Shown here: one piece after another, positions 4,455 through 21,253 of the stretch
Numbering within the stretch: the stretch's first letter is position 1
Layout of the letters: the number at the start of each line of letters is the position of its first letter
Source of the DNA: Methylophaga frappieri
GTDB lineage: Bacteria; Pseudomonadota; Gammaproteobacteria; Nitrosococcales; Methylophagaceae
Assembly (NCBI RefSeq): GCF_000260965.1
Contig: NC_017856.1
Span: 1,590,001-1,622,000 of the forward strand
Direction of reading: 5' to 3'
Length of the DNA: 32,000 bases
The notes under the pieces: model-generated
Databases searched by the model: none
Told to the model about the DNA's origin: nothing
Seen by the model: the letters and a program-made list of their open reading frames with translations, nothing else
Program-made: the position numbers and the translations under genes

Positions 4455-5405
4455 TTGCTGAAATATAAAAAGGTGTGTCAGATTATATGGAATCTGATTG
4501 TTGCAACGCAGGGTAATTTTCTGAAATCACAGCCGACTCATTTCCCCGTGTCTCTGGTGCTATTGGCAACCGTTTGCCTGATGCTGACTGGTTGTACCTT
4601 TTTTCAACAACAAACCACATCAACGCAATCAGCAGTCACACTTGAACCGGGCCCGGATGCCAACCAAGAGACAAACACGCAGATCACGGAACCTGAACGT
4701 GATGCTTTTTCAGATCTAAAAGACGCGCAAACCGTGCGCGATTTGTTTGCGCAAGATTATATTGACCCGCTGACACAGTATCTGAAAACGCATGCTGATC
4801 AGACAAATCTGTCAGCCTCAATAAAACTTGTCAAAGCAGAACGAGACCGACGTTGTCAGGTTATTGCCAAAGAATATGATAACCGCCCTGTTACCGCTGA
4901 GTCGGTTGCCAGATACCAATCTGGTTATCAGTTTTCCTGCCCCGCTGAAGTATCTGCTTATGCAGCACGACTTGAACCAACAGACCAAGACAGCACGGTG
5001 GCGAACGAAAGTGAGTCGCTTTCTTCTGAAAACAATGCAACAACGAGTTCTACGCCTTCGGCCGAGCTTGAAAAGTGTTATCTGTTGACCAGCATCAAAA
5101 ATTACAGCGCAGCAATAAAAACCTGTGAGCCGTTGGCTGCCGCAGGCGATACGGCGGCGCAATATCAAATGGCAAAAATACTGAACGCACTCTACCGGTA
5201 TGATGAAGCTATTTCATGGGCCGAAAAAGCCGCGCCTGCCTCTGCGGATAGCAGCTTTCTGTTAGCGACTCTGTATGCGCGAGGACAAGGCACATCGCAA
5301 GATCTCAATAAAGCCAATTACTGGTATCAGAAAGCCGCCGAATCAGGTCATCCTGAGGCGATAAAGTTACTTGAAAAAAAAGCCACCACTGAGGTTATCC
5401 CCTGA
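4455..5405 (+). CDS. Lipoprotein with C-terminal Sel1-type (TPR-like) repeats
   Basis: The lipobox is LMLTG|C. The Sel1 repeat signature is LATLYARGQGTSQDLNKANYWYQKAAESGHPEAIKLL. The start is ambiguous (TTG 4455, GTG 4473 or GTG 4548; there is no in-frame ATG before the lipobox). Confidence 0.7.
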   Translation: MLKYKKVCQIIWNLIVATQGNFLKSQPTHFPVSLVLLATVCLMLTGCTFFQQQTTSTQSAVTLEPGPDANQETNTQITEPERDAFSDLKDAQTVRDLFAQDYIDPLTQYLKTHADQTNLSASIKLVKAERDRRCQVIAKEYDNRPVTAESVARYQSGYQFSCPAEVSAYAARLEPTDQDSTVANESESLSSENNATTSSTPSAELEKCYLLTSIKNYSAAIKTCEPLAAAGDTAAQYQMAKILNALYRYDEAISWAEKAAPASADSSFLLATLYARGQGTSQDLNKANYWYQKAAESGHPEAIKLLEKKATTEVIP

Positions 5406-5437
5406 AATTGGCACTCCCTTCACGATTGAAATCGGGT

Positions 5438-7738
5438 ATGCCTGCCTTACTTAAGGATCATGCCAGACAAAGCTTGTTATGGCTGATCGTTTTGCTGGTA
5501 TTGCTGATGTTTACTGGCATGTGGGTGTTGTCTTCCTTGAATCTGAATTTTTCGGAAAAAACGTTATCTGGTCTGCGTAGTGAGCAGATAAAAGATAATT
5601 TCCAAGCGGGACTCGCCAGAATTGAACATCGGCAAAATGCGCTGCAAAGCTACAACACGACACTAGCCCAAGTAGGAGAAAGCTTTTGGCGTTTAACACA
5701 AACCAGCAATGAGCCTATCGCCAAAACCCGGCTCCGGGATCAACTCGATCACACGGTGAAAGCACACCTGCAAGGATTTGAGGGCGCGTCTGGTGGTTAC
5801 CTGTGGTTTAAATCCGATCTGGCAGCCTACTTTGGGGCCTTGGGTTATCACTTAGACAATGGTCATGTTGGTGCCCCGTTATCAGCCGATAAAGATTACC
5901 AGCAAGAAGGCTGGTTTCGACACCTTTCCGAACAGCTTGGTAACAGCCCACCCATTCCCGGTAAAGTCTATTGGACTCCCGCCTATTTTGATGTCGTTGA
6001 ACAGCAGGCAAAACTGGCGCTGATTAGCCCCATGTTTGATATTGAAAATAATCTTATTGGCTATGCCACAACCGACTGGGCAGCCGATACTATTATCGAA
6101 ATGGTCAGCCAGACACATGTCACCCATAGTGGTTTTGCATTTTTACTGGATCAAAATAATCGATCTTTATCCAGCCTCAACCTGAATGAAGATACCCTAC
6201 TTGCCCAAGAGTTGATTGATGCCATTCTGGCGCTGGACTTACCCAATGATCCCACGCTTAGGGCGCAACCTGAACCAAACACTGATGAGGTTCACATTGC
6301 AAACAGGGACTGGTTACTCTGGTTTGACAGTACGCCTGCTGGCATGGTGTTTGGGGTCGGAGCGCCGCAAGATGAAATTGATGCCGTCCTGTTGCCAATG
6401 CGTGATACCAATCAGCATATTCTGATTGTTACTGGTCTCATACTGATGGGCATCAGCTTCTGGCTACTTCGGCGCATGCTGAAATTACTGGCAGCTCTGA
6501 ACGCAGCCTACACTGATTCGTTAACCCATCTGCCAAACCGACCTAAGCTGCTGATTGATATAGCAAGCAGTGACCGAGTTGAGTTAGTCCTAATTAACAT
6601 TGACCGTTTTAAAGAGATTAACTCACTTTTTGGCCAATCGTGTGGGGACAGTGTATTGATTGCCGTGGCGGATAAACTGCAACGTATTGCTCAACCCATG
6701 GAAATGCAGCTTTATCGATTGCCTGGAGATGAGTTTGCACTCATCTTTCCAATCTTGCCAGCGACCGAACGAGAGCAACTGGCCAGCAATCTACATGAAC
6801 AGCTTCAAGGACTGACAGTAAATTGGCAGGGTCAACTGCTAACCCTGCATTTCACTTTTGGTATTGCCAGCCAGGATGATAAACGTCATACGCCTAATGA
6901 TGATCGACTGCTTACCTATGCCAGTATTGCGCTGCGCGAAGCGCGAAGCGCATCGAGGAATTATGGGTTTTATGATCCGGCTGATTCCCAAGAGGCTGTT
7001 TATGAGCAGAATATGCGGTTATCCCGACAATTGCGTGATGCGCTGACCGCCGATCGCATCATTCCCTGGTTTCAACCGATCTATGATAATGTCACCGGAC
7101 GAATAAACAAGTATGAATGTCTCATCCGCTTGGTAGATCAGACAGACAATATCGTTAGCCCAGGCCAGTTTCTGGAATTAGCGCATCAACTGCGCCTCTC
7201 CCGAGAACTGACCCGGCGCATGATAGAAAAATGTTTTGCTACCTTTCGGGATACCGATTTTACCTTTTCGATTAATCTTTCTTGTGCCGATGTTCAAGAG
7301 CCAGGATTAGTGGATTTTCTGACCGATACGCTGCGTGAGACAGGATTAGGCAAGCAAGTCATCTTTGAAATTCTCGAATCAGATGGCATTGCCAACTATC
7401 ATGACGTCATCCAGTTTATTCATCGGGTTAAAGCCTTTGGTTGCCAGATTGCCATTGATGACTTTGGTACCGGATATTCCAACTTTGCCCACTTACAACG
7501 CCTGAATGTGGATATCATCAAAATTGACGGCAGCTTGATCCGTCATATTCACGAAGATCCAACAGCAAGACAGGTCACTGAGGGGATCGTGGAGTTTGCA
7601 AAACGACTCAATATGAAAACCGTCGCAGAATTTGTGCATTGCAAAGCCGTACAGGAAGAAGTGTTGGCGATGAACATTGACTTTTCTCAAGGCGCATTTT
7701 TCGGTATGCCTTCATCGCAGTTGACCGGTCGTTCCTGA
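5438..7738 (+). CDS. Membrane sensor protein: periplasmic domain between two TM helices, then a degenerate GGDEF domain and an EAL c-di-GMP phosphodiesterase domain
   Basis: The ORF runs 5408..7738 (TTG 5408 or ATG 5438). The GGDEF motif reads LPGDEF, with the first Gly replaced by Pro. The EAL domain has ECLIR, SINLS, EILE, DDFGTGYSN, KIDGS, AEFV and QGAFFGMP. The ORF begins 2 nt after the Sel1 lipoprotein stop if TTG 5408 is used. Confidence 0.85.
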   Translation: MPALLKDHARQSLLWLIVLLVLLMFTGMWVLSSLNLNFSEKTLSGLRSEQIKDNFQAGLARIEHRQNALQSYNTTLAQVGESFWRLTQTSNEPIAKTRLRDQLDHTVKAHLQGFEGASGGYLWFKSDLAAYFGALGYHLDNGHVGAPLSADKDYQQEGWFRHLSEQLGNSPPIPGKVYWTPAYFDVVEQQAKLALISPMFDIENNLIGYATTDWAADTIIEMVSQTHVTHSGFAFLLDQNNRSLSSLNLNEDTLLAQELIDAILALDLPNDPTLRAQPEPNTDEVHIANRDWLLWFDSTPAGMVFGVGAPQDEIDAVLLPMRDTNQHILIVTGLILMGISFWLLRRMLKLLAALNAAYTDSLTHLPNRPKLLIDIASSDRVELVLINIDRFKEINSLFGQSCGDSVLIAVADKLQRIAQPMEMQLYRLPGDEFALIFPILPATEREQLASNLHEQLQGLTVNWQGQLLTLHFTFGIASQDDKRHTPNDDRLLTYASIALREARSASRNYGFYDPADSQEAVYEQNMRLSRQLRDALTADRIIPWFQPIYDNVTGRINKYECLIRLVDQTDNIVSPGQFLELAHQLRLSRELTRRMIEKCFATFRDTDFTFSINLSCADVQEPGLVDFLTDTLRETGLGKQVIFEILESDGIANYHDVIQFIHRVKAFGCQIAIDDFGTGYSNFAHLQRLNVDIIKIDGSLIRHIHEDPTARQVTEGIVEFAKRLNMKTVAEFVHCKAVQEEVLAMNIDFSQGAFFGMPSSQLTGRS

Positions 7739-7827: not shown

Positions 7828-8256
7828 ATGGCGCAAAGATTTAATGCTCGGGGTTTTTGGCTACGTTTTTTATTTGCATTAATTTTGGTATTTGCAACAT
7901 TTAACCCTAGTGGCTTTAGTTACTATCATTGGGCCAGTGATATTATTGCTGACAGTTCGGTTTTTCTCACACCGCCCTTTGCACTCATCACCATTATTCT
8001 TTTGATTGGCTGGACAATATACTTGCGCGCCACCTTGCGGTCGTTAGGTGGCTTTGGACTCCTATTATCATTTGCTTTTTTTGCCATCATTATTTGGTGG
8101 CTGGTTGATCTGGGGCTGCTCAGCATTGATAAGTTTTCCGGCCTGACCTATATCGTTTTGTTTTTGACAGCGGCGGTTCTGTCGGTGGGCATGTCTTGGT
8201 CACATATCCGGCGACGCTTGTCGGGGCAAGCCGACATGGATGATGTTGACGAATAA
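7828..8256 (+). CDS. Small integral membrane protein (about 4 TM helices), unknown function, first gene of the apparent mod operon
   Basis: ATG 7828 has AAGAGG 7 nt upstream. The 142-aa hydrophobic protein has an acidic C-terminal tail (ADMDDVDE). Confidence 0.7.
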   Translation: MAQRFNARGFWLRFLFALILVFATFNPSGFSYYHWASDIIADSSVFLTPPFALITIILLIGWTIYLRATLRSLGGFGLLLSFAFFAIIIWWLVDLGLLSIDKFSGLTYIVLFLTAAVLSVGMSWSHIRRRLSGQADMDDVDE

Positions 8257-11354: not shown

Positions 11355-12815
11355 TTACACATCGTAGGTTGAGGCAGACACATCTCCGCCACGTCCTGTC
11401 CAGTTGGTGTGGAAAAATTCGCCACGTGGCTTGTCCAGACGCTCATAAGTGTGCGCCCCAAAATAATCACGCTGTGCTTGCAACAGGTTTGCCGGTAAGC
11501 GAGCACTACGATAACCATCATAAAAAGACAAGGCACTCGAGAAGCTGGGTACCGGTACCCCAAGGCTAATCGCGGTACCAACCGCTTTACGCCAACCTGG
11601 TAAGGCTTCCGTAATTGCGTTGATAAAGAAATCATCCATCAACAGATTTTGCAAAGAGGGATCGCGATCAAACGCATCCCGAATATTACTGAGGAAACGG
11701 CTGCGAATAATACAACCACCACGCCACATCAACGCGATGCCACCATAATTCAGCTCCCACCCATAGGTTGCAGCAGCTTCACGCATTAACATGTAGCCTT
11801 GGGCATAAGAAATAATTTTCGAGGCATATAAGGCATCTCGAATGGCATCCACCATTTCTTGGGTATCACCTTCAAACTTGGCTGCCAAAGCAGGAAGTTT
11901 TTCCGAGGCGGCGACACGCTCTTCTTTCTGTGCAGACAAGCACCGTGCAAAAACGGCCTCACCAATCAAGGTCAGTGGAATACCCAGATCCAAGGCATTC
12001 ATACCCGTCCATTTGCCCGTCCCTTTCTGACCGGCAGTGTCTAAAATGTGGTCAATCAGCAAACTGCCATCCGGCTCTTTAACCGTCAGGATATCCCGGG
12101 TAATTTCGATAAGATAAGAGTCCAAGACACCGGTATTCCACTCTGCAAAGACCTGTTGAATCTCATCACCTGACATGCCGAGACCTTCGCGCATCATCTG
12201 GTAGGCTTCGCAAATTAATTGCATATCGCCATATTCAATACCGTTATGTACCATTTTGACATAATGACCAGCACCGTCATTACCAACCCAATCACAACAA
12301 GGTTCACCGTCAACCTGTGCAGCAATAGACTGGAAAATCGGTTTAATTGCGGGCCAGGCCGCATTATTGCCACCCGGCATCAAGGAAGGCCCAAACCGAG
12401 CACCTTCTTCACCGCCTGAAACACCACTACCAATGAATAAAATGCCTTTTTTGTGTAGCTCATGGGTGCGCCGATCACTGTCATTGAATAACGAATTACC
12501 GCCATCAATAATAATATCGCCTTTGTCGAGGTAAGGAACGAGTTGCTCAATAAACTGATCCACAACAGGACCAGCCTTCACCATCAACATCACCCGGCGT
12601 GGCGCTTTCAGCGTTTCCACGAAACTTTTCAGGTCATGACAACCGATAATATTGGTGTCTTTGGCCGGTCCGTTAATAAACTCATCAACCTTGCTGGTTG
12701 TCCGGTTATAAACTGCTACTGTGAAGCCCTTATCATTCATGTTTAATACAAGGTTCTGCCCCATGACGGCCAGACCAACCAGGCCAATATCAGCCTTTTT
12801 CTCCATTACTGTCAT
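11355..12815 (-). CDS. gnd: 6-phosphogluconate dehydrogenase, decarboxylating
   Basis: 486 aa. The N-terminal Rossmann motif is [17 protein letters not shown], with full-length Gnd-type sequence ([22 protein letters not shown]). Confidence 0.95.
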
Positions 12816-13801
12816 AATTTCGTTATCACCTTTATATATTCACCATCGGCTTCGCGCGATGACCCCACAACAATCCGGCAGTTTCCCGCATTGTCACACT
12901 CCACCGCTCCCGCCACCTCAATTATCTCTCCAGCAAACGCTTGTCCAACATACGTATGCGTAAAACATATCACCTCCGGTGTTCTGGGGTGATCAACGCT
13001 GTAACGGGCCGGAAAATCAAATGCATTTTGATCATCAATCACCCGGGCCCGAGTCACCTGGCTGCCACACTTCATGAAATGCCGATGTTCCGGCTCCAGT
13101 TCTGACTCAAAACAGACCATGCCAATATCAAACTTGCTGCCGTCCAGCATGGCTTTATTAAATTTGCGCTGCTCATGCCAGGCGAAATCATCAAAGTTTA
13201 ATGAACTTTGTCGTCGCTCATAATTAGCGTGCATCAATGTCTCATCCAAGAGCTTTAGCGTACCGTTTGCCACGCTCTCTTTCACCACCTGTCTGACTTG
13301 GTGAAAGTTGTCTCTACCATAAACCACAAAATCAATATCAGAATCCGGGCCATGATTATCGATCAACACGGAACCCGTTACACCCAATTTGTCTGACGCA
13401 ATACCCGCCGCACAAAATAGTGCCGTCAATCGTTGCAGTTTATCAGTCAATTGGTCTTGAGACAGCATTGTCATCAATTCGGCAAGTTTACTTTCAGGTC
13501 GATAATGCCGGACGACATTGTCCGGTCTAACGGCATGAAAAGCCGCATCAAACTGCGCAGATTGATACAGATAGTCAGGATAGTGTCTTTCCAGCAATCG
13601 ATTTGCCGTGTCTGTATCGACTTTCTGCCAACGTCCATCTTGCTTAACATATCGCAAAAAACAACCAATATGCTGCTGATGGGGATGATAGGAAATGACC
13701 GCAAACACCAGCCCTTCATCGGTTTCGATGAAATCTTTGGGCAAATACGGAAAGTCGGTCTGACGCAAAATTTCCTCCTCAATACCGACATCATGACACA
13801 A
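12812..13801 (-). CDS. Uncharacterised Pol-beta-superfamily nucleotidyltransferase with unknown N-terminal and beta-rich (possibly OB-like) C-terminal regions
   Basis: The minimal NTase motif GS-x10-DxD ([21 protein letters not shown]) lies at nt 13331-13375. The longest ORF starts at TTG 13801. TTG 13768 is the more likely start, because a strong GAGGAGG lies 5 nt upstream. The stop overlaps the gnd start (ATGA, 12812-12815). Confidence 0.7.
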
Positions 13802-13802
13802 T

Positions 13803-14699
13803 TTAGCGGCGCTGAAACTTACCTGCTAATCCAAACATACCATGGAAGGCAATGACGATTAGCAAGAGCAGCCATACATCAATGAAAAATCTGGCAATAC
13901 CATTGAACAATTGCCCCGTATGCAAGTCGGTGAGCACGCGATTAATCGGAATACCATCACCGTACAATTGAACTTCCATCGCTTTACGACTGGCTGAAGA
14001 CATGGTTTCAGGCTGACTCCAACTGACCCCTTGTAAAGACATCAACTCCCACTGATCGAGAAGAAAGTTACCGCGCCACATGCCCGTGTAGGTCTGCAGC
14101 ACCGGTTCGCTGTAATGCACCCCAATATTTTGGATTTGTGGCGGAATACCGGCAGCAGCGCCAAGCGTATCCAGATACTCGCCTTCTTTATTAAGCAAGA
14201 TCAATGCATCATCTGTTGCCAGCACGAGCAGATCTTCCAACGCGACAGCACCGACCAGTGGTCTGGGTAAATTCAATAAGGGCTGCGCATTGACGTAGAG
14301 CTTTTCATTAACGCCGACAATGACGTGCCCCGCCAAGACATAGGCTTTATCTGCCTGCAGTTCACCCACCTGATAATGCTGCTTGAGCCAGGCAGTGCTG
14401 ATTTTCACTTTGTCGAGACCAAGGAAACTCTGATGGTTTAACAGAATCGCACTACCCAGCCAGAACACGATCAGCAGGCCAGTCATTAAAAGCAGCAACC
14501 ACTTGAGCAGCGATGAAGCCAATATTTTCATTAGGGCGTTAGATGTTAAGGCTTGTTGTTGAACAGCCATTTTACCGAATCTGGAGAGAAAAGACAGGAA
14601 ACAGAGCACCGTTTTACTATACAAAAACGCCATATTCTGTTCCGTCACTGTGCTCAATTGCCTAGCCTTATTTAATACATGCAAACCCAGTCTGCTCAA
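13803..14699 (-). CDS. Membrane protein with an N-terminal TM helix, a ~200-aa periplasmic region and a C-terminal PepSY-associated-TM-like helix
   Basis: The C-terminal motif is DLHTGQLFNGIARFFIDVWLLLLIVIAFHGMFGL. The start is ambiguous (14699, 14633, 14570 or 14531; MKILASSLLKWLLLLMTGLL at 14531 gives a typical N-terminus). The stop lies 1 nt from the longest NTase ORF. Confidence 0.65.
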   Translation of the reverse strand: MSRLGLHVLNKARQLSTVTEQNMAFLYSKTVLCFLSFLSRFGKMAVQQQALTSNALMKILASSLLKWLLLLMTGLLIVFWLGSAILLNHQSFLGLDKVKISTAWLKQHYQVGELQADKAYVLAGHVIVGVNEKLYVNAQPLLNLPRPLVGAVALEDLLVLATDDALILLNKEGEYLDTLGAAAGIPPQIQNIGVHYSEPVLQTYTGMWRGNFLLDQWELMSLQGVSWSQPETMSSASRKAMEVQLYGDGIPINRVLTDLHTGQLFNGIARFFIDVWLLLLIVIAFHGMFGLAGKFQRR

Positions 14700-14793
14700 T
14701 TATCAGCGTTACATGCGCCCCCAAACGCGTCAATCGAAGTAGATAATCGCTCGGCTTTCGAGACAACATTAGGCTTACGCCCAGCTGATCAGA

Positions 14794-14832
14794 CGTGCCG
14801 GTTGGAGCGGTTACAGCAAAACAGCCGGCACG
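14794..14832 (-). other. Stem-loop (8-bp stem CGTGCCGG/CCGGCACG, 23-nt loop) 10 nt downstream of the three-small-gene operon
   Basis: The inverted repeat was read directly. No T-run follows on the minus strand, so it is a weak terminator candidate. Confidence 0.25.
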
Positions 14833-14841
14833 AAGGAATCA

Positions 14842-15069
14842 TTACATGACGTACTGTGCCGGCTGATGGGTGGTGGCCACTTCACGTTGCCGTAGACTGA
14901 ACATGGCCTTGCTGATATCAATGGCATAGTTGGCAAATTGTTGTTCTGACATTCGCAATGTTAACGCACCCATATTCAGGTGAACCATTTGACAATCGGC
15001 ACAATACTGCACCTCACAACCCGGTGAACTAAAAATTGTTTCCGGACGACAACTATTCGTTGCAGCCAT
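14842..15069 (-). CDS. Small orphan protein (75 aa) with a CX11CX4CX2C motif, third gene of the small-ORF operon
   Basis: ATG 15069 is preceded by a consensus SD (TAAGGAGAAATGA-ATG, with AAGGAG 6 nt upstream). The four Cys lie in the first 26 residues. No family recognised. Confidence 0.6.
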   Translation of the reverse strand: MAATNSCRPETIFSSPGCEVQYCADCQMVHLNMGALTLRMSEQQFANYAIDISKAMFSLRQREVATTHQPAQYVM

Positions 15070-15079
15070 TCATTTCTCC

Positions 15080-15337
15080 TTACAAGGACATTTCATAGGT
15101 TTCGCAATTGAGTCGCGATCCCCGATGTAATTGATAACTCAACCACCAGCGTCGAGAAAGTGACTGCCACAACCGTTGTTTTAACGGATGCGCATCCATT
15201 TCGGTCAATAACCGGTAGTTACGTGAAATTTGTAATGCCAGACAGGCACTGGCTTGTTGGCGGTAGCGTGTTTCCAATTCTGTTATGGCTGCCTGCATCA
15301 CTTCACAGCTCCATGCTGGCTCGTTTAACACCGACAT
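15080..15337 (-). CDS. Small orphan protein (85 aa), predicted helical, second gene of the small-ORF operon
   Basis: Its ATG lies 2 nt after the stop of the upstream 61-aa ORF (TAA-TC-ATG). Its own stop is embedded in the SD of the next ORF. Confidence 0.5.
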   Translation of the reverse strand: MSVLNEPAWSCEVMQAAITELETRYRQQASACLALQISRNYRLLTEMDAHPLKQRLWQSLSRRWWLSYQLHRGSRLNCETYEMSL

Positions 15338-15339
15338 GA

Positions 15340-15525
15340 TTACATCTCGGTGCGGCGTGCAGCAGCAGAAAGCAACATACTCCAGACACTTCGTTTAGAA
15401 GAAGCATCTAAGCAATTAAAATCAGCGGCGTGCAGCTTACCTTGACGGATAAGCGCCTCTAACCTATCTGGACGAAAAGCCAGGCGCACGGCCTGACGTT
15501 TACGAAATACATTTCGAAACGGCAT
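15340..15525 (-). CDS. Small basic orphan protein (61 aa), first gene of the small-ORF operon
   Basis: The ATG has GAGGG 8 nt upstream and lies ~40 nt downstream of the predicted -10. The N-terminus is Arg/Lys-rich. Confidence 0.5.
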   Translation of the reverse strand: MPFRNVFRKRQAVRLAFRPDRLEALIRQGKLHAADFNCLDASSKRSVWSMLLSAAARRTEM

Positions 15526-15565
15526 AAGATTGACCCTCAGCGATCGGCACTCAACATGGAGATTG

Positions 15566-15607
15566 AGTATAGATCACCAGATAATCTAAATGCAAATCAT
15601 TTTCATT
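15566..15607 (-). promoter_or_regulatory. Sigma70-like promoter (minus strand: TTGCAT 15590-15595, 18-nt spacer, TATACT 15566-15571) overlapped by a Fur-box-like sequence (15580-15607)
   Basis: CTAAATGCAAATCATTTTC (15586-15604) matches the 19-bp Fur consensus GATAATGATAATCATTATC at 13/19 positions. It is flanked by GATAAT (15580-15585). The site covers the -35 and the spacer. Confidence 0.5.
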
Positions 15608-15638
15608 TGTGAGGTAAAGACCGTTAAATTCCGGTCAT

Positions 15639-19552: not shown

Positions 19553-21253
19553 TTATTCTGACCAGTGCTTGTTCTTGCTGGTTTTGCCTATCCCGGGATT
19601 AAATCCATTGGTGGGATCCAGTTTTCTGTAAAAAGTCTTTAACGCTGGCTTGGCATGATACTCATGCCCTACATTGTGTTCAGCGGGATATTCCGCGCCG
19701 CGGGCATCAAAAAATGCCAATAGCTGTTGTTTAAGCGCTTTGGCATCAACGCCTTTTTTCAAAATGTAATTTTGATGCATGACATGACAGAACAAGTGGC
19801 CAAGATATAATTTAGCTTCCAGTTTATCTTCAATCTCTTGCGGCAAAACTTCCAGCCATTGCTGTTCATTACGCTTTAAGGCCACATCAACCGTCATCAT
19901 CGGGCCAAACTGTTTGCGTTTAATCGTGTGATAACGGCCAACCGCGCCACCAGCAACGAACCGATGCAAAATCGCTTTCTCGCCCTCGGCAGGCGTACAT
20001 TCAAAATAGTCACCTTCATGCGACGCAAAAAAAGTCGATAAATACTGCCGGGCTTCTTCCACCCCGTCGTCATTCATTTCCAGAATCCAGTGATGTGCAA
20101 ACCGCTCACGAAACGCATCCATTTTTTTGGGCAAATGATTTGGCCAGAGATAACTCAGGTACTGCATAAGGTGGTCAGATAATTTAGCCGGCAAAAATTT
20201 AAAATTGCCGGCAATGCGATCTACCGTGCGTTTAAGCGAAAACAGTTTCGGAATGTACTTTGAACCCAGTTTATCAATAACCAAAAACGTGTCTTTGCCA
20301 TACTTTTTACAAACATCGTAATACTCACGGCTCAGATATTCTCCAGAAACAGGCAAGTTATCAAACTCAGACAAGATGTCACGTCGCATTTTTGCCAGCA
20401 CCGTACTGTCATTGGTACCGATATAAAACACCTGTTGCTTTTTCGCGATCGGATAGGTGTCCAGCCGTACCGCAAATACGGCGAGCTTGCCGGCACAACC
20501 CGATGCCTCATGCAACCGCCGACCATCATTGTTAAATCGGGCTGGCGTTTCTTCGTCTACTTGTCTGACCCGATGGTGATATTCATCATCTGACGCCCGT
20601 TTATCGGGATAATGAATATCTGTCTGGCGATAATTTTGTTGCTCCAGATTGGTCAGCATTGCTTCTGGCGTTTCGCCCAGATCAATTCCTAAATGATTAA
20701 CCAGTGATAAGGTGCCATCCGCCGCAATCTGCGCATACAATGACAGCTCGGTATAAGCGGGACCACGTTGCACCAGAGCGCCGCCGGAATTATTACAAAT
20801 ACCACCGACAATGGATGCCCCTATACAAGAGGAACCTATCACCGAATGCGGCTCTCGGCCATAGGGCGCCAATACGGTTTCCAGTCCAAACAAGGTACTA
20901 CCTGCCAAACCAATGATCTGTTTCGCATTATCAATCAGCTGAATTTGATCAATGCGCATAGTATTAATAATGACGATTGGTCGATCATACTGATTACCAT
21001 CCGGTGTGGAACCGCCAGTCAAACCGGTATTCGCCGCCTGCATGATGACAATCACATCAGCAGCAACACACTGCTGCAACAATTGCCATACCTGTAGCAA
21101 GGTCGCCGGTCTGGCTACCGCTAACGCTTCACCCTCTCCAAAGCGAAAGCCCTTGCAATAAGGTTGAATTTTGGCAGGTGCTGTCAACACATAACGTTTG
21201 CCAACAATACTTTTTAAAGACGCTAATAATGGCTCGTGCTCTGGGTTTATCAT
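19553..21253 (-). CDS. dld: Quinone-dependent D-lactate dehydrogenase (FAD-binding)
   Basis: 566 aa, collinear with E. coli Dld (YCKGFRFGEGEALAV, MQAANTGLTGGSTP). Confidence 0.9.
   Translation of the reverse strand: MINPEHEPLLASLKSIVGKRYVLTAPAKIQPYCKGFRFGEGEALAVARPATLLQVWQLLQQCVAADVIVIMQAANTGLTGGSTPDGNQYDRPIVIINTMRIDQIQLIDNAKQIIGLAGSTLFGLETVLAPYGREPHSVIGSSCIGASIVGGICNNSGGALVQRGPAYTELSLYAQIAADGTLSLVNHLGIDLGETPEAMLTNLEQQNYRQTDIHYPDKRASDDEYHHRVRQVDEETPARFNNDGRRLHEASGCAGKLAVFAVRLDTYPIAKKQQVFYIGTNDSTVLAKMRRDILSEFDNLPVSGEYLSREYYDVCKKYGKDTFLVIDKLGSKYIPKLFSLKRTVDRIAGNFKFLPAKLSDHLMQYLSYLWPNHLPKKMDAFRERFAHHWILEMNDDGVEEARQYLSTFFASHEGDYFECTPAEGEKAILHRFVAGGAVGRYHTIKRKQFGPMMTVDVALKRNEQQWLEVLPQEIEDKLEAKLYLGHLFCHVMHQNYILKKGVDAKALKQQLLAFFDARGAEYPAEHNVGHEYHAKPALKTFYRKLDPTNGFNPGIGKTSKNKHWSE

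Follow-up and report, generated by a model that had tools for sequence, protein, structure and literature searches.

A probable Fur-repressed operon of three small soluble proteins in Methylophaga frappieri, with a distant relative of PA4570 as its predicted core

What might three very short genes, packed almost without gaps among housekeeping genes, be doing together, and what controls them? The question is raised by a locus on the minus strand of a 32,000-nucleotide (nt) stretch of DNA from Methylophaga frappieri, referred to here throughout as the window, in which three open reading frames (ORFs), ORF1, ORF2 and ORF3, are flanked upstream by ylqF and slp and downstream by genes for a protein with two transmembrane (TM) segments, a nucleotidyltransferase-domain protein and gnd. 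A first-pass annotation had taken the three for an iron-responsive module of orphan proteins fronted by a Fur box. Judged by their conservation they are real genes that form a co-oriented and tightly coupled coding unit, and our preferred reading, to which we give a probability of roughly 0.6, is that they make up a Fur-repressed operon of three genes that stands by itself and belongs to the response to iron starvation, with ORF1 as the core component and ORF2 and ORF3 as accessory ones. The elements of the locus are listed below, with protein lengths in amino acids (aa) and, for each gene, the median pairwise ratio of nonsynonymous to synonymous substitution rates (dN/dS, Nei-Gojobori method).

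15590-15595, minus strand: -35 hexamer TTGCAT, invariant across all aligned loci
15582-15609, minus strand: AT-rich imperfect dyad CAAATGAAAATGATTTGCATTTAGATTA, a putative Fur-type operator that contains the -35 hexamer; near-invariant in 27 Methylophaga loci, with diverged flanks
15566-15571, minus strand: -10 hexamer TATACT, invariant across all aligned loci
15534-15538, minus strand: Shine-Dalgarno (SD) sequence GAGGG of ORF1, 8 nt ahead of the ATG (sequence reading)
15340-15525, minus strand: ORF1 (Q7C_1599), 61 aa, His-type PA4570-like protein with the signature GKLHAADFNCLD..SK..VW.MLL; 100% match; dN/dS 0.18
15080-15337, minus strand: ORF2, 85 aa, helical orphan with the signature SACLALQISRNYRLL ... 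WW..Y; dN/dS 0.12
15076-15081, minus strand: SD sequence AAGGAG of ORF3, overlapping the stop codon of ORF2 (sequence reading)
14842-15069, minus strand: ORF3, 75 aa, DUF6686-like protein with a zinc-ribbon-type beta-sheet and a long helix; dN/dS 0.14

The coding unit and its promoter

The layout described in the first-pass annotation, three minus-strand ORFs of 61, 85 and 75 aa separated by gaps of 2 and 10 nt, agrees with the sequence in every coordinate and length. The junction between ORF1 and ORF2 reads TAA-tc-ATG, and the stop codon TAA of ORF2 (15080-15082) overlaps an AAGGAG that lies 6 nt upstream of the ATG of ORF3, so that the stop does sit inside the SD sequence of the following gene, as had been claimed. 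A scan that took one genome per species returned 28 loci, every one of them from Methylophaga, and tblastn found the order ORF1-ORF2-ORF3 to be identical in all 28, with the trio lying between ylqF-slp and the block of TM-protein, nucleotidyltransferase and gnd genes. The ORF1/ORF2 junction measures +2, -1 or -4 nt in all 29 loci, a GGAG or AGGA motif stands ahead of ORF3 in nearly all of these, and the alignment of upstream regions keeps a TGAGG/TGAGA core at the SD sequence of ORF1. In the Methylophaga protein alignments the cores of all three proteins are invariant and the ends are variable. It is because of the common order, the low dN/dS values (0.12-0.18) and the kept junctions and SD sequences that we regard the three ORFs as real genes, and the trio is thus conserved as coding sequence in its relatives.

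Two of the three genes are imperfectly represented in current annotation. ORF2 appears in GenBank (100% match) as the N-truncated 72-aa Q7C_1598, which is 13 codons too short; both the conservation of W9 and the coupling to the stop codon of ORF1 favour the 85-aa start over the annotated one. For ORF3 there is no 100% match in a collection of 5.8 billion proteins, and since no identical entry exists there the gene appears to be unannotated in M. frappieri. No hydrophobic segment occurs in the window sequence of any of the three proteins, all of which are soluble, and comparison of the ORF1, ORF2 and ORF3 families with one another by hhalign gave no relationship between them. The 5′ leader has an unremarkable fold, and no Rfam match was found anywhere in the window.

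The promoter proposed in the first-pass annotation, TTGCAT-18-TATACT, is present upstream of ORF1. Its elements lie 40-70 nt upstream of the gene, and neither hexamer varies among 27 related loci, the spacer being 18 nt in the window and 17 nt in the relatives; a generic promoter scan did not report it. When the 27 upstream regions are aligned, a near-invariant footprint emerges that reads TAAAT(G/A)A(T/A)AAT(G/T)ATTTGCATTTAGATTA, followed by about 9 variable nt and then TATACT. The sequence from the slp stop codon to this block has diverged freely, and the leader has done so in part. The block is an imperfect palindrome, and in most loci its reverse strand scores at a 5-nt offset with a position weight matrix (PWM) built from the genus box, as dyad symmetry implies. 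In the window the dyad (15582-15609) includes the -35 hexamer (15590-15595), so that the putative operator overlaps the core promoter.

It had been claimed that this dyad matches the Fur consensus at 13 of 19 positions. The match is there (CTAAATGCAAATCATTTTC, 15586-15604 on the plus strand, the best in the locus against the 19-bp E. coli consensus GATAATGATAATCATTATC) and the footprint around it is kept, but a score of 13/19 is not above chance on its own, sites of at least 13/19 numbering 23 in the window as compared with about 7 in Markov-1 simulations. We therefore dropped consensus counting as evidence for a Fur box, and because such matches are common by chance the case for Fur is a comparative one. 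On either strand of the window and of all loci, the genus-box PWM matches only the ORF1 promoters and the intergenic region after ORF3, where matches of at least 14 bits in 11 loci precede genes for TonB-dependent receptors or porins; most of the remaining intergenic regions at this position show the core AATGATAATGATTCGCA. An operator that is kept in 27 orthologous loci and is common to the promoters of receptor and porin genes suggests that ORF1 and typical iron-uptake genes are controlled through the same element.

Scoring the site region with a Fur PWM was one of the checks that the first-pass annotation had proposed. With a matrix trained on the promoters of ORF1 homologues from other taxa, the site at 15586-15604 ranks first, and the overlapping 15592-15610 third, among 63,964 window positions, a ranking that is partly circular since the training sites were picked for resembling the E. 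coli consensus. The window site scores 11.3 bits as against 18.7-29.8 for the training sites and is thus a degenerate Fur box, in keeping with the genus as a whole, where the box matches the consensus at 12-15 of 19 positions. Taken together, the footprint, the shared box, the Fur boxes of distant homologues and the relationship to PA4570 (both described below) favour the iron and Fur control that had first been proposed, and we consider Fur-type control of the trio very likely. The predicted regulation is itself ordinary, with a classical Fur layout.

Two other matches in the window are recorded here for completeness. The second-best match to the PWM from other taxa is GCAAATGATAATAGGAGTC at 8057-8075 on the minus strand (10.8 bits), within a DUF6524 ORF and shortly before the genes of a modABC-like transporter (SBP_bac_11, permease, ABC-TOBE), and probably reflects chance. 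A cluster of 13-15/19 consensus matches at 20572-20626 falls inside the D-lactate dehydrogenase gene (19553-21253, minus strand) and is regarded as a compositional coincidence.

Protein families and distant relatives

The three proteins had been described as orphans, and this holds for ORF2 only: scans of whole families, which separated consistent matches from noise where the Pfam and NCBIfam scans of the window proteins remained below threshold, place ORF1 near PA4570 and ORF3 near DUF6686. When 1.8 billion representative proteins were searched with a profile built from the ORF1 family of Methylophaga (E ≤1e-3), the result was 213 clusters (representatives at 50% identity) that share the motif V-x-L-x-I ... 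L..L...G-x-L-(H/C)-A-A-D-F-(R/N)-C-L-D..S-K..V-W. In the ORF1 family the V-x-L-x-I segment is strand-like and is followed by two or three helices. The sole curated family matched by members of this superfamily is PA4570_fam (NF050178), found in 8 of 10 and in 77 of 150 members tested, the latter count being of matches at E ≤0.01 in proteins that match no other family; the best E-value is 2e-7. Window ORF1 itself matches at E 0.025 and 14.8 bits, and the top score in the scan of individual proteins is about 23 bits, as against a curated cut-off of 100 bits. By these profile comparisons ORF1 is a distant relative of PA4570 at the level of the superfamily, not a member of the family.

PA4570 is a 74-aa protein of unknown function that has been likened to the RNA-binding Rsm proteins, a proposal without functional support, as it failed to complement rsmA or csrA phenotypes (PMC4950607). 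Iron represses its gene fully, and the Fur box in front of the gene is shared among pseudomonads (bioRxiv 10.64898/2026.09.03.749296). A small protein encoded directly behind a predicted Fur operator is likewise what is found at the window locus and at its homologues. A literature search returned nothing for the DFRCLD motif or for Q7C_1599.

The distant homologues of ORF1 were recovered from metagenomes, with taxa assigned by exact look-up, and belong to Methylobacter, Methylomonas, Methylovulum and Methylococcaceae, with one further group represented by a plasmid gene of Shewanella baltica. Most of the homologues from Methylobacter, Methylomonas and Methylovulum are preceded, at about 40-55 nt, by Fur-consensus matches of 12-16/19 (mostly at least 13/19), and the Shewanella-type ones by boxes of 14-16/19. 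Among 61 distinct homologue promoters, 28 reach at least 14/19 (14-16/19), from both the Methylococcales and the Shewanella type, as against 3.6% of 230-nt windows drawn at random from these contigs; those of the close group that fall below 14/19 still reach 12-13/19. One of these promoters carries the near-canonical box AAATGATAATCATTATC (16/19). Behind the ORF1 homologues of Methylococcales come genes resembling ORF2 (as on Methylobacter-type contigs), ORF3 or both, and the flanks hold piuA-like receptors with piuC, TonB-ExbB-ExbD, an IucA/IucC-FhuF siderophore synthetase and PepSY_TM genes.

The same 61 homologues fall into two forms. Twenty-three are His-type and Cys-poor (1-2 Cys), and 38 are Cys-type (5-10 Cys), with the motif LCAADFRCLDC.SK.CVW.LCL..C and Cys-rich tails. 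ORF2-like and/or ORF3-like partner genes were scored downstream of 21 of the 23 His-type homologues, and one of the two exceptions (locus L031) has an ORF3-like gene below the score threshold; none of the 38 Cys-type homologues has such a partner. Both kinds of partner, ORF2-like and ORF3-like, carry invariant Cys residues.

The Cys-rich genes occur in distinct settings. Stand-alone genes with 8-9 Cys, all annotated as hypothetical, are found in Shewanella baltica OS155 (L109, plasmid pSbal01, 2983-3201) and in L068, L070, L082-L084, L089, L092 and L093; they have Fur boxes of 14-16/19 and lie directly upstream of a tyrosine integrase and beside a DUF3369 HD-GYP response regulator. A second branch (L071, L073, L077, L087, L088, L090, L096, L099, L102) lies behind, and often overlaps, genes for proteins of 414-512 aa that end in DUF2325; no Fur box was found in front of these small genes, and the flanks of the pair hold a P-type ATPase and a TonB-dependent receptor in L073 and L077. 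On the partnered side, the Methylomonas-type contigs L058 and L059 encode, at 4577-6739 on the minus strand, an ABC exporter that has a C39 peptidase domain at its N-terminus, the type that exports bacteriocins or ribosomally synthesized and post-translationally modified peptides (RiPPs); its gene and the ORF3-like gene are convergent.

ORF3 had been singled out for a C-X11-C-X4-C-X2-C motif as a candidate metal site. The motif is present in window ORF3 but is not conserved as four Cys: of 29 Methylophaga orthologues 15 have Val in place of C18, and the Methylococcales homologues lack this Cys as well. The other three, C7, C23 and C26, do not vary, and 17 of 19 homologues retain H30, giving a kept spacing of C-X15-C-X2-C-X3-H. 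DUF6686 (PF20391) is matched by 18 of 19 members of the ORF3 family, with a best E-value of 1.3e-6, and window ORF3, with 15.4 bits (E 0.019), falls short of the gathering threshold of 23.9. Judged by these scans the family as a whole is related to DUF6686, the window protein being a sub-threshold, divergent relative. What ORF3 and 17 of the 18 other homologues match is the N-terminal CxxC part (model positions 14-55 of 117), though the 75-aa ORF3 covers only about a third of the model. A literature search returned nothing on DUF6686. The AlphaFold2 model of ORF3 has a predicted local distance difference test (pLDDT) score of 81, four strands and a helix at 42-67; the best Foldseek match to it, the MmoD inhibitory subunit (6d7k_H, E 0.57), was treated as chance.

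The ORF2 family, which has a single invariant Cys, carries the signature S-x-C-(L/I)-A-L-x-I-(S/A)-R-x-Y-R-L-L ... W-(W/F)..Y, and no Pfam family is consistently matched among its 13 members. ScpB, PH_TRF2 and ParE_like, each matched by one or two of the 13, were set aside as noise. Profile searches of all three families against PDB sequences likewise gave no match. The profile and structure searches suggested in the first-pass annotation have thus directly yielded only family matches below threshold, and no PDB analogue.

Proposed mechanism and its alternatives

We propose that the locus works as follows. Transcription would start from the sigma70 promoter TTGCAT-18-TATACT, the -35 hexamer of which is embedded in the AT-rich dyad of Fur-box type. 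As long as iron is present, the dyad would be bound by Fe2+-Fur, which would shut RNA polymerase out; once iron is lacking, an mRNA of about 0.75 kb would be made. ORF1 and ORF2 would be coupled in translation, across the 2-nt gap here and through ATGA or TGATG-type overlaps in relatives, and ORF3 would be re-initiated from the strong SD sequence that overlaps the ORF2 stop codon, so that three small soluble proteins would be produced together. ORF1 would be the core component, with ORF2 and ORF3 as partners confined to its Cys-poor forms. With lower confidence, the three proteins may form a cytoplasmic hetero-oligomer whose subunits jointly build a Cys/His metal site (Zn or Fe-S) in trans, from C7, C23 and C26 (with H30) of ORF3 and from the conserved His32 and Cys38 of ORF1 and/or Cys32 of ORF2. 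Such a site would stand in for the Cys cluster that the Cys-rich relatives, which stand alone, have within one molecule, and the complex would act as an effector or sensor of iron starvation and not as a transport component.

The split site is suggested by the fact that Cys-poor forms are nearly always partnered and Cys-rich ones never, and that the partners have invariant Cys residues. Only tentatively, then, do we suggest that the stand-alone forms bind a metal or Fe-S centre alone and that the His-type lineage divides the site among ORF1, ORF2 and ORF3. A wider generalisation is doubtful: that the PA4570-like superfamily is a widespread core component of Fur regulons that binds a metal or Fe-S centre, which in methylotrophs and methanotrophs has become a split sensor or effector together with ORF2 and the DUF6686-like ORF3. 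Under it, the proteins of Methylophaga, Methylobacter, Methylomonas and Methylovulum would have lost their own Cys ligands and would be supplied with them in trans by their partners. Were it true, the locus would represent a new kind of small-protein iron-starvation device and would offer the first functional handle on PA4570.

Several points weigh against the reading as an iron-starvation operon built on a PA4570-like core. As noted, the 13/19 match is unremarkable in this window, the site is degenerate when scored with the matrix from other taxa, and that matrix is partly circular; iron dependence and Fur binding are predictions drawn from comparison. None of the 150 superfamily members tested reaches the 100-bit cut-off of NF050178. 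The predicted structure of ORF1 is poor (pLDDT 64) and the model has no PDB analogue, and Foldseek found nothing significant in the PDB for the ORF3 model either. The heteromer and its metal site are proposed from gene patterns. Cassettes with ORF1 and ORF2 only, and with ORF1 and ORF3 only, exist, so that a single fixed three-protein site is not general, and two homologues have Tyr where ORF3 has the proposed ligand H30.

The trio, or ORF1 alone, might instead be a transcriptional or post-transcriptional regulator, de-repressed through Fur, of the neighbouring uptake genes (those for the TonB-dependent receptor or for porin, FMN_bind and PepSY_TM proteins), by a second-tier logic analogous to the Fur control of FecI or PvdS. 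The cassette does adjoin uptake genes in Methylophaga and in Methylococcales, and the strand-like V-x-L-x-I with its helices could be ribbon-helix-helix-like or helix-turn-helix-like, though the family and structure searches turned up no family or fold that binds DNA or RNA. ORF1 is very basic in this genome, with an isoelectric point of 11.65 for the window protein, as the first-pass annotation had remarked; by our reading of the alignment, however, this is apparently not kept across orthologues and looks like a trait of the variable N-terminus of the window orthologue, not of the family. The proposed resemblance of PA4570 to Rsm proteins would suit a regulator, but the failure to complement speaks against it (PMC4950607). 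Additionally, the receptor and porin genes own a Fur-type box, so that no intermediary is needed, and the trio is retained without an adjacent receptor in seven genomes, including that of M. frappieri. We consider a regulator of this kind improbable.

The dyad could also be the operator of something other than Fur, such as Zur, a Fur-family paralogue or an unrelated AT-rich-binding repressor, with zinc or another signal in place of iron. Regulons of Zur often include small Cys-containing proteins, ORF3 resembles a Zn-ribbon, and the Methylophaga box deviates from the Fur consensus (12-15/19). Against this, homologue promoters elsewhere have near-canonical Fur boxes, such as AAATGATAATCATTATC at 16/19, and the box is common to genes for TonB-dependent receptors, which, like the siderophore synthetase, PiuC and TonB-ExbBD encoded nearby, are classical targets of Fur and not of Zur; the related pa4570 is, moreover, iron-repressed (bioRxiv 10.64898/2026.09.03.749296). 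A non-Fur operator thus seems most improbable to us. That the ORFs are unrelated and partly spurious neighbours, or a mobile cassette of the toxin-antitoxin type, is barely credible: each ORF is short, ORF3 has no GenBank annotation and two of the 13 members of the ORF2 family match ParE_like weakly (E 0.023), but all three are under purifying selection with fixed order and coupling in 28 species, their syntenic position between slp and gnd is stable with no mobile-element genes, and in another order, Methylococcales, it is specifically behind ORF1 homologues that genes like ORF2 and ORF3 turn up again. The observed conservation largely refutes this last possibility.

Neighbouring genes and known systems

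Two further features follow ORF3 in the window:

14784-14832, minus strand: 8-bp GC-rich hairpin (CGTGCCGG ... CCGGCACG) without a U-tract, just past ORF3; fold z-score -1.6
13803-14531, minus strand: two-TM PepSY_TM-like gene, probable start ATG 14531; placed by synteny and overlap-coupled to the NTP_transf_2 gene and gnd

The first-pass annotation had linked the trio to this PepSY_TM-like gene, a link that turns out to be weak. Other genes, most of them with their own copy of the box, stand between ORF3 and the PepSY_TM-like gene in 17 related loci, and at the position after ORF3 three relatives (L001, L004, L007) have a strong intrinsic terminator, GGGAGC...GCTCCC-T7; for these reasons we rejected an operon of the trio with the PepSY_TM-like gene as a general feature. 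The latter is instead coupled to the genes behind it and is probably a separate unit, to judge from its arrangement. The hairpin of the window is a weak or doubtful terminator, and it is only because a clear one is missing after ORF3 that an operon with the PepSY_TM-like gene is possible in M. frappieri. The window protein has no Pfam match at E up to 1; its orthologue in L015 matches PF16357 (4e-7) and PF03929 (7e-7), and a paralogue in L003, 37% identical, matches PepSY_TM at 1e-14. The block at 11355-14531 (minus strand) consists of the PepSY_TM-like gene, a 329-aa NTP_transf_2 gene and gnd, with stop/start overlaps at 13801/13803 and 12812/12815, and is syntenic wherever the contig reaches far enough among the 28 Methylophaga loci. 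A two-TM protein and an NTP_transf_2 protein are unexpected operon partners for gnd, which encodes 6-phosphogluconate dehydrogenase, an enzyme of the ribulose monophosphate (RuMP)/pentose-phosphate pathways.

What follows the trio on the same strand varies within the genus. A gene for a TonB-dependent receptor of about 720 aa is found in nine loci and genes for Porin_O_P-like and FMN_bind proteins in eight, nothing follows in the window and six other loci (the seven genomes without an adjacent receptor), and one locus has a divergent receptor with a PiuC-like oxygenase. The strong terminators of L001, L004 and L007 belong to loci of the kind in which nothing follows. Most loci with an uptake gene after ORF3 show their own copy of the box there. 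The cassette of Porin_O_P-like (about 420 aa) and FMN_bind (about 181 aa) genes, seen in L003 (6792-9336), L014 (6741-8606), L018, L020-L022, L027 and L028, carries the same AATGATAATGATTCGCA box as ORF1, with the L003 version adding a 238-aa PepSY_TM protein, and may be a Fur-regulated unit of reductive iron uptake.

Among known systems the closest is PA4570 of Pseudomonas aeruginosa, which like ORF1 is small (61-74 aa), soluble and encoded directly behind a Fur box. It differs in that NF050178 fits the Cys-rich stand-alone forms better, ORF1 being of the Cys-poor His-type, and in that pa4570 is monocistronic with the small RNA (sRNA) RsmW in its 3′ untranslated region (UTR), whereas two translationally linked partner genes are found here. 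There is no sign of an RsmW-like 3′-UTR sRNA at our locus, the region after ORF3 not being conserved between the window and its relatives and holding no Rfam sRNA. At classical Fur-repressed promoters, such as those of E. coli fhuA and fepA, the Fur box lies over the -35 and -10 elements. The Methylophaga promoter resembles these in having an AT-rich dyad or hexamer array over the -35 and spacer of a sigma70 promoter and in the reuse of the element at genes for TonB-dependent receptors, and differs in that the putative operator is degenerate (12-15/19) with respect to GATAATGATAATCATTATC.

Small proteins of Fur regulons include Bfd (2Fe-2S), FhuF with its C-terminal CCx10Cx2C, FeoC and HemP/HmuP. 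Like these, the three proteins are small, cytoplasmic and, by prediction, induced by iron starvation, often lie beside genes for TonB-dependent receptors and, as some of these do, may have Cys-ligated metal centres. The Cys spacing is different, ORF3 having C-X15-C-X2-C-X3-H, and the Pfam families of Bfd, FhuF_C, FeoC and HemP found no match, up to an E of 1, in ORF1, ORF2, ORF3 or relatives of these. What is new with respect to all of these is a three-gene variant of a PA4570-type small-protein gene of the Fur regulon, and a superfamily that exists in two forms. Relatives of PA4570 occur in many bacteria (the 213 clusters above) and repeatedly lie behind predicted Fur boxes in iron-uptake neighbourhoods, and the division between Cys-rich stand-alone forms and Cys-poor forms with one or two Cys-bearing partners makes an intramolecular versus a split metal or Fe-S site a testable hypothesis, for which the methylotroph locus is the simpler genetic system. 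For annotation, the comparison yields a missed gene (ORF3) and a corrected start of ORF2 in M. frappieri, and defines a putative Fur-type operator for the genus Methylophaga.

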